Assembly: GCF_045037415.1 (NCBI RefSeq)
Contig: NZ_CP173438.1
From: Escherichia coli
GTDB taxonomy: Bacteria > Pseudomonadota > Gammaproteobacteria > Enterobacterales > Enterobacteriaceae
Direction: 5' to 3' (one strand)
Length of the DNA stretch: 64,000 nt
In this document: positions 5,210 to 62,161 of the stretch, piece after piece
Layout of the letters: every line of letters begins with the position of its first letter
Numbering within the stretch: position 1 is the stretch's first letter
The notes under the pieces: generated by a model
What the model was told of the DNA's origin: nothing
What the model saw: the letters and a program-made list of their open reading frames with translations, nothing else
Databases searched by the model: none
Translations under genes and position numbers: made by a program

Positions 5210-8200
5210 TTACGCCTTCTCGATGTTTACTAAGAACGCTTTATATTCCGGCGTTTGCGAGTTTGCATCACCGACATTCGGCGTCAGAGTGTTAGCGATA
5301 TAACCTTTACGCGCGACACCTTCAAAGCCCCAGTGGATTGGAATACCCACCGTTTCAACCTGCTGACCGTTTACATTCAGCGGTTTCAGACGGCGCGTTA
5401 CCACAGCCACCGCGCGGATAAAGCCACGCTTGCTGGAGACAGTGACACGATCGCCATTGGCAATGCCTTTCGCCGCCGCCAGCGTTTCGCTGATTTCCAC
5501 AAACTGTTCCGGCTGAGCAATTGCGTTGAGCAATGCGTGCTTGGTCCAGGTGTGGAAGTGCTCCGTCAGACGATAGGTCGTACCCACATACGGGAACTGC
5601 TCTTTTTTACCCATCCGCAGCGCGTCTTGTTCATACAGACGAACAACCGGGTTAGACACCACGTTCGGATGCAACGGGTTAGTGCCCAGCGGCGTTTCAA
5701 TTGGCTCGTAGTGTTCCGGGAACGGACCTTCCGCCATTTTGTTGATGGCAAACAGGCGTCCCATCCCTTCCGGTTGCATGATAAACGGCCCGGTTGGCGT
5801 ACCCGGCGCGGCATTGCCGAAGTCCGGAATATCGTTACCCGTCCACTTGCTACCGTTCCACTGGATCAGCATCCGTTTCGGATCCCACGGTTTACCGTTG
5901 ATATCCGCCGAAGCACGGTTGTAGAGTACGCGACGGTTGAGCGGCCACGCCCAGGCCCATCCCAGCGTATTCCCCAGACCGGACGGGTCGGAGTTATCGC
6001 GGTTAGCCATCTGGTTGCCCTGCTCGGTCCAGCTACCGGTGTAGATCCAGCAAGAAGATGCGGTTGTACCGTCATCACGCAGATGTGCAAAGCTACTCAG
6101 CAACTGACCTTTCTTCGCAATCAGCACGCCATTAGCGTCATAGAGATCTTCCAGCGCATAGCCGTTATTCTCTTTCGCCACTTCATCAGACTGCGGTTCG
6201 TGCGGCTGCTTGTAGTTCCAGCTCATCTTCATCAGCGGTTCTACGCCTTTACCACCTTCGGCCTGGTACAGCTCGCGCAGATGATGGTAGATACCCGCCA
6301 GAATTTCGCCGTCGTTACGTGCTTCGCCCGGCGCGTCCTGACCTTTCCAGTGCCACTGCAACCAGCGACCGGAGTTAGCGATAGAACCATCTTCTTCAGC
6401 AAAGCAGGTCGAAGGCAGACGGAATACTTCAGTCTGAATAGATGCCGGATCGACATCGTTCGACTCGCCGTGGTTCTGCCAGAAGGTAGAGGTTTCAGTC
6501 ACCAGCGGATCGATAACCACCATGTACTTCAGCTTGCTCAGGCAGCTCACCACTTTGTTTTTGTCCGGGAAGGACGCAACCGGGTTAAAGCCCTGGCAGA
6601 AATAACCGGTGACTTTACCTTCATCCATCATGTTGAAATACTTGATGACGTCGTAGGTCTGGTCCCACTTCGGCAGCCAGTCGTAGCCCCAGTTGTTCTC
6701 TTTCTGCGCGGCATCGCCGTAGAAAGATTTCATCAGGCTAACGAAAAACTTCGGATAGTTGCTCCAGTAGTTCACCTGATCAGCCAGCGTCGCTTTCGGC
6801 GTGTTCGCTTCCAGATACGACTGCAAATCAACCTGTTTTTCTGACGGCAGCGTCAGATAACCTGGCAGGCTGGTAGAGAGCAGGCCTAAGTCAGTCAGGC
6901 CCTGAATGTTGGAGTGACCACGCAATGCGTTCACGCCGCCACCGGCCATACCCATGTTACCGAGCAGCAACTGGATCATCGCCATCGTACGGATGTTCTG
7001 CGCACCCACGGTGTGCTGCGTCCAGCCCAGCGCGTACAGGAAGGTGGTTGTGCGATCCGGTGCGCTGGTGGAGGCCAGCACTTCACACACTTTCAGGAAG
7101 TCGGCTTTTGGCGTACCGCAAATGTTTTCTACTACGTCCGGCGTGTAGCGGGAAACGTGCGCTTTCAGCAGATTCCATACACAGCGCGGATGAGTCAGCG
7201 TGTCATCGCGTTTCGCATAGCCGTTTTCATCGAACTGATAGTTCCAGGACGACTTATCGTATTGACGTTTTTCAGCGTCGTAGCCGCTGAACAGACCGTC
7301 TTCGAAAGCAAAATCATCACGCACCAGCAGGCTGGCGTTGGTGTAATGCTTAACGTATTCGGCGTTGATTTTGTTGTTTTCGATCAGGTAGCGCAAAACG
7401 CCAGACAGGAACGTAATGTCCGTACCGGAACGAATAGGTGCGTAAATATCCGCCACAGAAGCGGTACGCGTAAAACGGGGATCGACAACGATCAAGGTTG
7501 CATCGTTGTTGTTTTTCGCTTCCATCGCCCAGCGGAAACCGACGGGATGCGCTTCAGCAGCGTTACCGCCCATCACCATTACGACGTTAGCGTTTTTGAT
7601 ATCCACCCAGTGGTTGGTCATCGCACCGCGACCAAATGTTGGAGCAAGACTTGCTACCGTTGGTCCGTGTCAGACGCGCGCCTGGTTGTCTACCGCCAGC
7701 ATCCCGAGGGAGCGGGCAAATTTTTGAGTCAGCATCCCGGTTTCGTTGCTGGCACCGGAAGCACACAGCATACCGGTAGAAAGCCAACGGTTTACCGTTA
7801 CGCCCTGCTCGTTCTTTTCAATAAAGTTAGCGTCACGGTCGGCTTTCATCAGCTTCGCAATACGGGAGAATGCTTCTTCCCAGCTAATGCGCTGCCATTT
7901 GTCAGAACCTGGCGCACGATATTCCGGGTAGCGCAGACGGTTTTCGCTGTTGACATAATCCAGCAAACCGGCCCCTTTCGGGCACAGCGCACCACGACTT
8001 ACCGGATGATCCGGGTCACCTTCAATGTGATAAATCGCTTCTCTGGCGTTTTTCGCGCCATCACCCAGGCTATACATCAATAGCCCGCAACCTACGGAAC
8101 AGTATGTGCAGGTGTTACGGATCTCTTTCGCGCGTAATAATTTGTAGTTTCGCGCCTGAGCCAGTGCTTGCTTCGGGGCAAAGCCCAATGCTGCTACTGT

Positions 8201-11031: not shown

Positions 11032-11125
11032 GAGATCGATGCCTGACACGTCTTATCAGGCTACAACCGTGTCGCATCCGACAAGGCATCAGATCCCAAT
11101 TCATTCCTGGAGCAGGAGTTATGTC

Positions 11126-17858: not shown

Positions 17859-18752
17859 ATGAAACCGCAAGTGTACCACGTCGATGCTTTTACCTCTCAA
17901 CCGTTTCGCGGCAATTCTGCCGGTGTTGTTTTCCCCGCCGATAATCTCAGTGAAGCGCAAATGCAGCTTATCGCCCGCGAGTTAGGTCATTCGGAAACTG
18001 CTTTTCTGCTGCACAGCGACGACAGCGATGTGCGCATCCGCTACTTTACGCCAACGGTTGAAGTGCCAATTTGCGGTCACGCGACGGTGGCTGCGCACTA
18101 TGTACGTTCAAAGGTATTAGGTTTGGGAAATTGCACGGTCTGGCAAACGTCGCTGGCAGGAAAACATCGTGTGACTATCGAAAAGCAAAATGATGATTAT
18201 CGTATTTCGCTGGAACAAGGTACGCCAGGCTTTGAGCCACCACTGACAGGTGAAACACGTGCAGCGATTATCAACGCGCTTCATCTCACTGAGGACGATA
18301 TTCTGCCAGGCTTGCCAATTCAGGTGGCAACAACAGGACACTCAAAAGTGATGATCCCGTTGAAACCAGAAGTGGATATCGACGCCCTTTCGCCTGATCT
18401 TGCTGCGTTGACCGCTATCAGCAAACAGATTGGCTGCAATGGTTTCTTCCCGTTCCAGATCCGCCCAGGCAAAAGCGAAACCGACGGTCGCATGTTCTCG
18501 CCTGCGATTGGTATTGTGGAAGATCCGGTGACCGGGAATGCCAATGGTCCGATGGGCGCATGGTTAGTACATCACAACGTATTGCCCCACGATGGCAACG
18601 TGTTGCGTGTTAAAGGCCATCAGGGGCGCGCATTGGGGCGTGATGGTGTAATTGATGTGACGGTGACAATTCGCGATAACCAACCGGAGAAAGTTACCAT
18701 TTCCGGCACGGCGGTGATTCTATTCCATGCTGAATGGGCCATTGATTTTTGA
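17859..18752 (+). CDS. yddE: PhzF-family isomerase-like protein (297 aa)
   Basis: ORF 17859..18752; recognised as YddE. Confidence 0.85.
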   Translation: MKPQVYHVDAFTSQPFRGNSAGVVFPADNLSEAQMQLIARELGHSETAFLLHSDDSDVRIRYFTPTVEVPICGHATVAAHYVRSKVLGLGNCTVWQTSLAGKHRVTIEKQNDDYRISLEQGTPGFEPPLTGETRAAIINALHLTEDDILPGLPIQVATTGHSKVMIPLKPEVDIDALSPDLAALTAISKQIGCNGFFPFQIRPGKSETDGRMFSPAIGIVEDPVTGNANGPMGAWLVHHNVLPHDGNVLRVKGHQGRALGRDGVIDVTVTIRDNQPEKVTISGTAVILFHAEWAIDF

Positions 18753-18753
18753 T

Positions 18754-18837
18754 GCCGTTGCCTGATGCGCTTCGCTTATCAGGCCTACAACCGGACTAAT
18801 GTAGGCCGGATAAGGCATTTACGCCACATCCGGCAAC
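18754..18837. repeat. REP/BIME-type extragenic palindromic repeats (two units)
   Basis: gccgttgcctgatgcgcttcgcttatcaggcctac and tgtaggccggataaggcatttacgccacatccggca match the E. coli REP consensus family. Confidence 0.6.
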
Positions 18838-18847
18838 CTGACATAAA

Positions 18848-19693
18848 TTATTTTCCCGCCTCCGGGTGCGTATCAAACGCCGCCATCACCAGCGCTAACT
18901 CATCCACAGTAAAGCCATGTTTCGCATCATCTACGCCCAGACCAAACTGTTCCTGCATCACGGCATATAACGACGCCACATCTGGTAGATTTCGCTGCTC
19001 AACTGCGTGCCCATTTTCATAATGGGTAAAATGAAAATTGGTCAGCGTTAGCTTGCCACCGTCCGGCAAATGGCGACACATCAGCAAATGATGGCGAAAA
19101 TGCGACTGCGGCCAGTGCGCCGACCAGAAATTGCCTATCACATAATCGCTTTGTTGCTGCTCGCAGAGATCAAAACGGTACATCGACTGCCAGTGCTGAT
19201 GATGATTAAACTGCAATACCCAATCATCACCCTCTTGCAACAACCGATACTCTCCGTGTGGCGTGGTTTGCATGATATCCGGCATTAAACGAATCGGCGC
19301 GGTTAGCGTCTGCCCACCGAAACCGACATCAGCAATCCATTTTTCCCCTTCCAGTTCCACCAACAGCAAACGATGGGTGCGCGGCGGTAATGCTGGCGGA
19401 TTTGATAACACTACGCGACCTAACAAGCTGCGAACGTTAAACCCCAGCTCGCGTAACACCCGCTCAAACACGCCATTCTGCTCAAAACAGTAACCGCCAC
19501 GACGGGCTATCACCAGTTTCTCTTCCAGCGATTGATCATCAAGCTGTATTTCCCTCGGCAGCAAAACGTCGAGATTTTCAAACGGAATGGTGCAATTGTG
19601 TTTCAGGTGCAATGCACGCAGCGTATCAATATTGGCCGCAGCAGCTCCCAACCAGTTAATACGGGCAAAATAATGATTCAGAATGGGCGTCAT
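18848..19693 (-). CDS. nhoA: Arylamine N-acetyltransferase (281 aa)
   Basis: ORF 18848..19693; MTPILNHYFARINW..., NAT family with catalytic Cys region GGYCFEQN. Confidence 0.9.
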   Translation of the reverse strand: MTPILNHYFARINWLGAAAANIDTLRALHLKHNCTIPFENLDVLLPREIQLDDQSLEEKLVIARRGGYCFEQNGVFERVLRELGFNVRSLLGRVVLSNPPALPPRTHRLLLVELEGEKWIADVGFGGQTLTAPIRLMPDIMQTTPHGEYRLLQEGDDWVLQFNHHQHWQSMYRFDLCEQQQSDYVIGNFWSAHWPQSHFRHHLLMCRHLPDGGKLTLTNFHFTHYENGHAVEQRNLPDVASLYAVMQEQFGLGVDDAKHGFTVDELALVMAAFDTHPEAGK

Positions 19694-20437: not shown

Positions 20438-20507
20438 GCATTACATGCTGTAACCGGGTTTCTTTATCAAAGCCTCCATTTGGGGCGCGATTTCGGCCAG
20501 GGCAAGA

Positions 20508-21644
20508 TTACGAAAGCCCGCTCCCCGCAAGGACTGACGCGAGATAGTTTCTGTCCATGGCTGCTTTTCGCATCTTACGTCTTAACCCTGCCTTGAATAC
20601 CTTATCATTCGTTAAAATATTAATAGCGATGTGCCGTATCCCTGAAAATAATTCTGCGGCGTTTCCTCTTCTTATTTTGCAGTCGTCTTCATTCATTACC
20701 ACGTCCAGACGCCAGTGCAGCTTATTCTCCACGTGCCAGTGGTTTCGGATTGCTGTGGCGAACTTCTCTGCGGTTAAATCAGCAGAACTGATATAATATC
20801 TGACCGTCATTTCTGGCTCTTTCTTTTGTTCTGCTATTATGGACCGAAAGGAGACTGCCACGCATAATTTCTTCAGTCCTTTCCATTCGAACGTGAAATC
20901 AATAAGTTCATCAGGGACATCGCAAACAATATGAAGACGGATTTCTTCTCTGCCGTGACTCTTTTCACTAATGGCGTAACTGTCATGTTCTGGATTATTT
21001 AATTCTTTCAGTGGAAATTTTTCCTCAAAGGCTTTATTAAGCCGCCCCTGATTTCCTTTTACAGCGAATAAATAATCACCGCCCTGTTTTTGTATCTTCT
21101 CTGCAATATCTTTCTGGCAACCCATCGCATCAGTTGTGATGATTTTTCCTTTAATATCCAGCATGTTAAGAAGTTCAGGGATAGGTGTAATTTCATTGGA
21201 TTTCTCATCCGTCCTGATCTGTCCGATGACCAGACTGTGCATTGTTGAGAACGCACTAATGACATGAATCGCTCCCTTGCGGCGACTCTTGTCATAAGAA
21301 TGCCGGAGTGTTTTTCCATCAATTGCGATGACGTCTTTATCATCTGAAGAATGGCAGTCACGCATCCAGTTAATAAAGCACTCGTGAAATTTTGCAGGAC
21401 TGATACAGGATACAACTCTGGCAATGGTATCGTGAACAGGAATACCATTATCAAAATCACCATATTGCTTCAAAAAATCGAGATGTGTTTCCCCAAAATC
21501 CTCTATATCTTCCCAGCCTTCTGCACCCGAAATAACGGCACAAATAGTCAACAGTAGAATATCCGATAATTTATGTTCCACTTTCCAGGCTTGTCTGTAA
21601 TCGGGGATAATAGAAATATGTTCCATCAATTTTTTAAGTTCCAT
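20508..21644 (-). mobile_element. H-repeat-associated protein / ISAs1-family transposase gene (378 aa), AT-rich; element ends not defined
   Basis: ORF 20508..21644; [52 protein letters not shown]... recognised as the YdcC/YhhI/YbfD H-rpt protein family. Confidence 0.82.
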
Positions 21645-23960: not shown

Positions 23961-23989
23961 AAATTGCCCGGCTACGTGCCGGGCAAATT
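23961..23989. terminator. Hairpin between convergent ansP and yncE (likely bidirectional terminator)
   Basis: 9-bp stem ttgcccggc/gccgggcaa with 5-nt loop; U-run follows on the minus strand. Confidence 0.5.
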
Positions 23990-24067
23990 CAGACTACTGA
24001 CGAAGGTGCCGGATGCGGCGTGATAAAAGTCAGGCAATTCTTTCCGTTTTCACCCTCGCCATATCTA

Positions 24068-37522: not shown

Positions 37523-37534
37523 GTCATTTGTTGC

Positions 37535-37565
37535 CGGATGCGGCATGACGCCTTACCCGGCAGGC
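37535..37565. repeat. REP-like palindromic element between yncJ and ydcP
   Basis: ttgccggatgcggcatgacgccttacccggcagg resembles the REP consensus. Confidence 0.4.
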
Positions 37566-51020: not shown

Positions 51021-51099
51021 TTATTTTCGTCCCTAAGGAAACCACATAGGATGCTCACGGGTGCCTGAGACTTTCTGTTTTCAGGCTAACCTGGAATCA

Positions 51100-51145
51100 G
51101 AAAGACGAAGGCCCCGACCGATATTTCTATCAACCGAGGCCAACG

Positions 51146-51175
<30 letters not shown>
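51100..51175 (-). ncRNA. sokB: Expected position of the SokB antisense RNA (approximate)
   Basis: Placement by analogy with hok/sok loci where the antisense RNA overlaps the mok translation-initiation region; exact ends not determinable from sequence. Confidence 0.3.
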
Positions 51176-51354
<179 letters not shown>

Positions 51355-51769: not shown

Positions 51770-51833
51770 CTTCCGATGTAGGCCCGTATTCTTCGCCTGT
51801 ACCACGGGTCGGTTTTAGTACAGGCGTTTTCTT
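51770..51833 (+). ncRNA. rydC: RydC small regulatory RNA
   Basis: cttccgatgtaggcccgtattcttcgcctgtaccacgggtcggttttagtacaggcgttttctt matches the RydC sequence as recalled; terminal hairpin cgcctgtac/gtacaggcg plus U tract; sits between ydcA and cybB. Confidence 0.7.
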
Positions 51834-61942: not shown

Positions 61943-62161
61943 CGCACCCTGCCCTGTAATAAAACGGATTAAGAAAAATCAGTATAGAAACGAAAAGAGA
62001 TAAATAATGCGAGGGTGTAAACAAGATTGCGGGATGAGTTGTACTGTTGCCCTGAAAGACACGAAACCCCAGGCAGGTTAAGACACGTCAAGCACCGCAT
62101 CCGGCAATAAAAAAACCGCAACCTGTATCAGCGTTGCGGTTTATGCATTACATGCTAAAAA

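Follow-up and report, generated by a model that had tools for sequence, protein, structure and literature searches.

A doublet of REP units between the convergent genes yddE and nhoA of Escherichia coli

The palindromes between the convergent genes yddE and nhoA of Escherichia coli raise the questions of whether they belong to the REP family, which kind of element they form, and what they might do to the two genes that they separate. REP/BIME elements, of which each genome has several hundred, were first described in E. coli some 40 years ago. We analyzed the locus within a stretch of 64,000 nucleotides of E. coli DNA (the window; positions are counted from its first letter). The joint explanation that best accounts for the results, to which we assign a probability of roughly 85%, is that the spacer carries an old doublet of one Z1 unit and one Y unit of the REP family, which serves as a target of the transposon IS1397 and which would affect RNA through hairpins lying close to the stop codons.

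The gene yddE, which encodes a PhzF-family isomerase, occupies positions 17859 to 18752 on the plus strand, and nhoA, which encodes an N-hydroxyarylamine O-acetyltransferase, occupies positions 18848 to 19693 on the minus strand; both were identified from open reading frames and from the annotation of identical E. coli records. The spacer (18753 to 18847) consists of the 95 nt between the convergent stop codons, which are TGA at 18750-18752 for yddE and TAA, the complement of 18848-18850, for nhoA. It reads TGCCGT / TGCCTGATGCGCTTCGCTTATCAGGCCTAC / AACCGGACTAAT / GTAGGCCGGATAAGGCATTTACGCCACATCCGGCA / ACCTGACATAAA, and the whole doublet lies inside it. A repeat finder identified three inverted repeats in the spacer. 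The inner arms are CTTATCAGGCCTACA / TGTAGGCCGGATAAG, and the outer arms, GTTGCCTGATG / CATCCGGCAAC, are located at 18757-18767 and 18827-18837, in agreement with the extent of 18754 to 18837 given in a preliminary description of this DNA. The third repeat is formed by the Y unit's own arms. Over the 2 kb around the doublet, the window shows 100% identity to several complete E. coli chromosomes in which yddE and nhoA are annotated, and the same 2-kb stretch was found in 5399 of 5426 E. coli genomes. Matches to the spacer were found in 5425 of the 5426 genomes, at a median of at least 40 places per genome. The yddE/nhoA spacer of K-12 is also 95 nt long, and the K-12 RefSeq record has no repeat features annotated for it. 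A literature search on yddE, nhoA, and REP returned nothing relevant, and the supplements of three papers had no nhoA or yddE entries.

The first unit is a short Z-type palindromic unit of 30 nt (Z1; 18759 to 18788). It lies on the minus strand, where it starts with GTAG and reads GTAGGCCTGATAAGCGAAGCGCATCAGGCA; on the plus strand, which is the sense of the yddE mRNA, it appears in the inverted form (iREP), with CTAC at its end. The second unit is a Y-type palindromic unit of 35 nt on the plus strand (18801 to 18835), with an intact 5' GTAG and the sequence GTAGGCCGGATAAGGCATTTACGCCACATCCGGCA. A 12-nt linker, AACCGGACTAAT (18789 to 18800), lies between the CTAC and GTAG ends. In an edit-distance scan, Z1 differed from the 30-nt short-Z consensus by 1 substitution. 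The Y unit was identical to the published 35-nt consensus, GCCGGATGCGGCGTGAACGCCTTATCCGGCCTAC, at 32 of 35 positions (3 substitutions); the Y consensus used in the scan equals the published one. Shuffled windows gave 0.15 Y matches per window at 10 or fewer edits, and the short-Z threshold was looser, with 7.1 matches at 9 or fewer edits. The GTAG-proximal 14-mer GTAGGCCKGATAAG had 3 matches with at most 2 mismatches, compared to 0.23 expected, and both exact matches are in the doublet, on opposite strands. A single fixed-gap REP pattern had no match in the window, because loop lengths vary among unit types.

We also used two covariance models with the expected hairpin built in, R1 for Y units (23 units aligned) and R2 for short Z units (7 units). 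The training units were gathered by pattern scan from E. albertii contigs totaling ~154 kb; the orthologous Z1 copy was excluded, and the orthologous Y copy is identical to copies used from other loci. In unfiltered searches of the window, R1 matched the Y unit with 57.4 bits (E = 2e-18) and R2 matched the Z1 unit with 53.4 bits (E = 9e-16). Each unit was also matched by the opposite model, at 27-29 bits. The preliminary description had placed REP palindromes between yddE and nhoA and had named a scan with REP consensus models as the way to check this. Both units match such models, and the claim is borne out in the form of two inverted units that agree with the consensus sequences and with the covariance models.

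Both units are predicted to fold in the same way: GTAG stays unpaired, the stem has 7 bp, and a short upper stem follows after a 2-nt mismatch. In the Y unit, the mismatch sets AA opposite AC, and the upper stem beyond it has 3 bp. In the definition of the REP family, GTAG precedes the foot of the stem on its 5' side, and the stem is interrupted by a 2-nt mismatch. The Z1 hairpin has a folding energy of -13.2/-12.9 kcal/mol (z = -4.1/-3.0) and the Y hairpin one of -18.1/-19.4 kcal/mol (z of about -5), with z ranging from -3 to -5.3 over both hairpins. The whole spacer folds with -34.8 kcal/mol, and with -40.7 kcal/mol on the minus strand (z of about -3.8). We concluded that the Y unit is a Y-type REP: it agrees with the consensus, is an imperfect palindrome with GTAG, is extragenic, and is highly repeated. 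Hairpins are generally abundant between genes, and this is the one point in favor of regarding the two palindromes as GC-rich sequences that arose by chance and are unrelated to the REP family. Against such an origin stand E values of 1e-15 to 1e-18 obtained with models made from copies in another species, the at least 40 copies per genome, and the insertion of the REP-specific IS1397 in the loop of the Y unit, which is described below. We consider chance a vanishingly improbable source of this sequence.

The arrangement Z...CTAC/GTAG...Y is also present in E. albertii, Citrobacter, Kosakonia, and Pseudocitrobacter. The preliminary description had taken the palindromes as marks of typical E. 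coli chromosomal DNA. The window is indeed E. coli chromosome, but that assignment rests on the flanking genes and not on the REPs. Exact enterobacterial Z-linker-Y doublets were also observed in a contig of a Bacteroidales metagenome-assembled genome and in a 262-bp contig of Desulfosporosinus sp. OT; these are likely to reflect enterobacterial contamination or mis-binning.

IS1397 inserts specifically into E. coli REPs. In strain SK0832, a copy of IS1397 (positions 1522 to 2952 of contig L001) is inserted in the loop of the yddE/nhoA Y unit, with its ends, TGAAC...GTTCA, lying between ...GATAAGGCATTT and ATTTACGCCACATCC. Strain EC28 (contig L009) has IS1397 at the identical point of the same Y unit, within a different flanking allele. 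The insertion point in both strains is between GGCATTT and ATTTACGCC, which is equivalent to 18820/18821 in the window, and the target duplication is 3-4 bp, ATT(T). Either IS1397 inserted recurrently at one point, or it inserted once, long ago, and the flanks later recombined. We also searched with an 81-nt query across the BIME/IS1397 junction, at least 80% of which was covered in 152 genomes, with the locus established for SK0832 and EC28. Since a REP-specific element is inserted in its loop, the transposon treats the Y unit as a REP. We concluded that the doublet is a demonstrated natural target of IS1397.

We also examined the doublet for the features of a TnpA-REP substrate. In vitro, this protein needs a GTAG-REP with a stem mismatch together with an inverted REP on the same strand that bears CC/T cleavage motifs (slashes mark the cleavage position). 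A GTAG-REP and an iREP are present on both strands of the doublet. The motif TGCC/TGAT is located in the iREP at 18759-18766, and the motif GGCC/TACA is located at 18782-18789 and, on the other strand, at 18807-18800. The doublet thus carries every sequence feature that TnpA-REP needs in vitro and is a predicted substrate. We regard it as an old, immobile, and non-autonomous remnant of the REP family; the spread of this family has been ascribed to RAYT/TnpA-REP (rayT/yafM).

To which class of BIME the doublet belongs depends on the naming of its Z unit. In the published scheme, a BIME-1 has one Y and one Z1 with a long conserved L linker between them, often with an IHF site; a BIME-2 has tandem Y and Z2 units with short linkers, usually 2-12 units; and the remaining arrangements are called "atypical." Most sources name the units that flank rayT in K-12 Y and Z2, and the Rfam consensus for the Y-l-Z2 repeat of REP325/naRNA4 contains the same long Z form. 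The naming of Z units is not uniform, as one paper calls the long units flanking rayT z1. We rejected the label Z2 for the 30-nt unit of the doublet, as Z2 is the 37-nt long form found at the rayT flanks of K-12, GCCTGATGCGACGCTGGCGCGTCTTATCATGCCTAC. Because the long Z of the rayT flanks and of REP325/naRNA4 is called Z2, the 30-nt unit is Z1 on majority usage, a label assigned by elimination.

Like a BIME-1 (RIB/RIP), the doublet has one Z1 and one Y in inverted orientation, with the CTAC and GTAG ends facing inward, in a single copy, and it sits at the 3' end of transcription units. Unlike the L motif of a BIME-1, which is 32-34 nt long and has an IHF site, the linker here is 12 nt long and lacks the IHF core consensus. 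With a BIME-2 the doublet shares a Y paired with an inverted Z over a short linker, and such Y units are preferred gyrase cleavage sites; it differs from a BIME-2 in that its Z is the 30-nt short form rather than the 37-nt Z2 and in that it is a single doublet, not an array of 2-12 tandem units. We concluded that the doublet has the composition of a BIME-1 with a 12-nt linker in place of L, which makes it an "atypical" BIME under the published scheme. In a census of linker lengths covering E. albertii and other genera, some short Z units had L-like linkers of 25-34 nt (e.g., CTGCAATATATTGAATTTGCAC...), and others had short ones, of 6-24 nt. A Z1 and a Y joined by a short linker are therefore a common variant and not an oddity. 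The element between yddE and nhoA is an ordinary REP doublet of an already described kind. Its importance is small, as the copy is typical, old, and fixed, and its value lies mainly in correcting the earlier reading of the locus.

That reading had included binding of IHF and gyrase as possible functions, and neither fits this locus well. In BIME-1, the site bound by IHF is the long, conserved L linker. The 12-nt linker cannot hold the 13-nt IHF core, WATCAANNNNTTR, which had 0 matches in the whole window. IHF binding is not expected here, since both the L linker and the IHF core consensus are missing. For gyrase, enrichment in vivo has been documented for a subset of multicopy BIME-2 arrays, mainly at their Y units, and in gel shifts BIME-2 is bound with higher affinity than BIME-1. 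The case for gyrase binding is weak, the locus being a single Z1-Y doublet and the documented enrichment concerning BIME-2. By analogy, the single Y unit could be a weak gyrase site, which we regard as less likely.

The broader proposal that the main role of the doublet is to recruit proteins, whether gyrase, IHF, or nucleoid factors of the HU/naRNA type, draws on the preference of gyrase for Y units within BIME-2, where it cleaves loops and stem mismatches; on reports that REPs bind gyrase and DNA polymerase I; and on a match of the Y unit to the Y half of Rfam naRNA4 with 34.3 bits. That match is far under the gathering score of 59.5 bits, however, and reflects the shared Y hairpin only. The doublet is not a BIME-2, having a short Z and a single pair of units, and it has neither an L linker nor the IHF core consensus. 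A protein-binding site is a very unlikely main role. The naRNA4 family (RF02564, derived from REP325) thus resembles the doublet in its Y hairpin and differs from it in its second hairpin, which is Z2, and in its linker. Rfam has no REP family, and a scan of the whole window gave no gathering-level match at the doublet, naRNA4 being the sole match below threshold.

Two other known systems bear comparison with the doublet. In Pseudomonas fluorescens, inverted REP doublets (REPINs) are regarded as the mobile unit. Like a REPIN, the doublet can be folded into one long hairpin (-40.7 kcal/mol, minus strand) and is accompanied by a RAYT in the genome. Unlike in a REPIN, its arms are of different types (Z1 and Y), so that the long hairpin is imperfect, and the copy is old and fixed, with no sign of recent mobility. 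The subterminal hairpins of IS200/IS605 elements are likewise imperfect and carry a guide-like tetranucleotide on their 5' side; a Y1 HUH transposase recognizes them in single-stranded DNA. They differ from the doublet in that no transposase gene lies between the hairpins here and in that TnpA-REP is a monomer supplied from one distant locus.

We determined the age of the doublet from the orthologous spacer of E. albertii, which is flanked by sequences matching the 3' ends of the two genes. This spacer has Z1, a 12-nt linker, AACCGGGCTACT, and Y, and the distances from the units to the two stop codons, 6 nt and 12 nt, are equal in the window and in E. albertii. An equal doublet with equal spacing in E. 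albertii indicates that the insertion is older than the split between E. coli and E. albertii. Within E. coli, all six alleles have a spacer of 95 nt. We concluded that the doublet is old and fixed.

Identity to K-12 is 89.5% for the spacer, compared to 94.0% for the whole of yddE (86.2% at third codon positions) and 96.2% for the whole of nhoA (91.8% at third codon positions). The spacer therefore drifts roughly neutrally, at about the synonymous rate, and this near-synonymous divergence argues against strong selection on its sequence. In the window allele and in E. albertii, the Y unit retains GTAGGCC and the Z1 stem is intact (-13.2 and -12.3 kcal/mol, respectively), whereas in K-12 and most of the sampled alleles the Y unit has GTATGCC and the Z1 stem is weaker, with -6.7 kcal/mol at the lowest stability. 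As most other alleles have GTAT in place of GTAG, TnpA-REP recognition has not been preserved here. For the Y hairpin, folding energies lie between -18 and -21 kcal/mol across the six E. coli alleles and E. albertii alike. At sites 18784 and 18804, the window allele is ancestral-like. We considered whether the changes C/T at 18784 and G/T at 18804 are compensatory and rejected this, as the two sites belong to adjacent pairs of the long hairpin and not to one pair.

These patterns bear on whether the doublet is now a functionless relic, that is, selfish DNA that entered a permissive convergent spacer long ago and has no measurable effect today. The identity of the spacer to K-12 falls within the range of the flanking third codon positions (86-92%), and K-12 and most of the sampled alleles carry mutations in both the Z1 stem and the Y unit's GTAG, as such a relic would predict. 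A relic accounts less readily for the Y hairpin, which is retained in every allele and in E. albertii, and for the distances to both stop codons, which are unchanged between the species; moreover, stable hairpins so near to stop codons are reported to have effects elsewhere. Complete loss of function seems somewhat unlikely, and we continue with the preferred reading, in which the stop-adjacent hairpins of the doublet would act on RNA.

A terminator scan found 0 T-tract terminators between 18500 and 19100 on either strand. Given that no T-tract terminator is present, both convergent transcripts probably enter the doublet, where they would fold into two stable hairpins. The doublet could itself be a bidirectional transcription terminator for yddE and nhoA, for GC-rich hairpins lie right after both stop codons and BIMEs have been reported to aid Rho-dependent termination. 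Neither hairpin is followed by a T tract on either strand, though, in line with the negative scan, and the lack of a T tract makes intrinsic termination unlikely. We regard a dedicated terminator as quite unlikely, and return to hairpins that would form in transcripts that run into the doublet.

Pairing in the Z1 hairpin starts 7 nt past the stop codon of yddE, and pairing in the Y hairpin starts 13 nt past that of nhoA. REP hairpins impede 3'-to-5' exonucleases and thereby stabilize the upstream mRNA, as established in work of the Newbury/Higgins era. Stabilization of mRNA is also listed among the functions of BIMEs. The hairpins of the doublet would protect the 3' ends of the yddE and nhoA mRNAs, and by analogy such stabilization, which the preliminary description had also raised, is plausible. 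In addition, according to a secondary summary of the study by Liang et al. (2015), REPs located 15 nt or less from a stop codon are reported to stall terminating ribosomes and to lower translation. At both genes, a unit lies within this distance, at 6 nt from the stop codon of yddE and at 12 nt from that of nhoA, and the hairpins could attenuate translation of both.

A single doublet might in this way tune both mRNA decay and translation termination of the two genes, with a strength that depends on the lineage. If so, the difference between a Z1 hairpin of -13.2 kcal/mol in the window, also intact in E. albertii, and one of -6.7 kcal/mol in K-12 would lead to heritable differences in yddE expression among E. 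coli lineages. The same decay of the Z1 hairpin in other lineages counts against an RNA role. We consider this lineage-dependent tuning unlikely. The locus offers a natural test bed for a stop-adjacent REP, with an intact lineage, the decayed form of K-12, and strains that carry IS1397.

The preliminary description had named two further REP-like sites in the window. The first, given there as 37535..37565, is a real but degenerate Y unit: a solitary copy on the minus strand at 37532..37565, with GCCT instead of GTAG, was matched by R1 with 28.5 bits (E = 7e-8) and by the consensus scan with 6 edits. The convergent genes yncJ and rlhA flank this copy, which forms a hairpin in the minus-strand fold. 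At megablast stringency it is single copy, and it is in place in 5413 genomes. The second site, placed with reservation at 23990..24010, proved to be a half-unit remnant on the plus strand at 24007..24023. It consists of an exact match to a 17-mer, TGCCGGATGCGGCGTGA, of the GTAG-distal arm of Y, compared to 0.27 matches expected at 3 or fewer mismatches. The suggestion of a REP-derived sequence nearby was correct, but the remnant is not a full unit: no partner arm was found, and neither R1 nor R2 matched it. The genes on either side, ansP and yncE, are convergent. The same spacer also has a strong GC-rich hairpin of 9 bp at 23964..23986, TTGCCCGGC TACGT GCCGGGCAA, which is unrelated to REP. 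On the minus strand, this hairpin is followed by AATTTTG and may be a weak terminator of yncE, although the terminator scan made no call there.

All three sites named in the preliminary description lie between convergent genes, as it had stated. We found two further candidates that it did not include. On the minus strand at 11040..11064, R2 matched a degenerate unit resembling a short Z (GTA-GCCTGATAAG...TGTCAGGCA) with 16.2 bits (E = 0.005), and the consensus scan matched it with 7 edits; it lies 8 nt past the narU stop codon, in the spacer between the co-directional genes narU and narZ. The sequence that follows it, up to 11090, is CTAC-AACCG...CGCATCCGACA and resembles the start of the yddE-nhoA linker joined to the tail of Y. 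The stretch 11040..11090 may be a decayed Z1-Y doublet from which most of Y has been deleted. A doubtful REP-like remnant on the plus strand at 62069..62106 was matched by R1 with 12.9 bits (E = 0.04), with an exact right arm, CGCATCCGGCA; it lies in the spacer between two minus-strand open reading frames. A separate terminator-like sequence, a hairpin with a T run, is located at about 62108..62143. Since the sites at 11040..11064 and 62069..62106 lie between co-directional genes, the REPs of the window are not confined to convergent boundaries.

Several features unconnected with REPs were also observed in the window. A transposase gene of the ISAs1-family element ISEc1 (ydcC-like) is located at 20508..21644 on the minus strand, 70 nt past yddH. 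There is no pptA-like open reading frame in 20438..21644, where pptA of K-12 overlaps the end of yddH. Rfam matches at gathering level were obtained for the sok antitoxin RNA of a hok/sok locus at 51059..51210, for the small RNA RydC at 51770..51833, and for a selenocysteine insertion element at 7617..7675 on the minus strand, inside fdnG.
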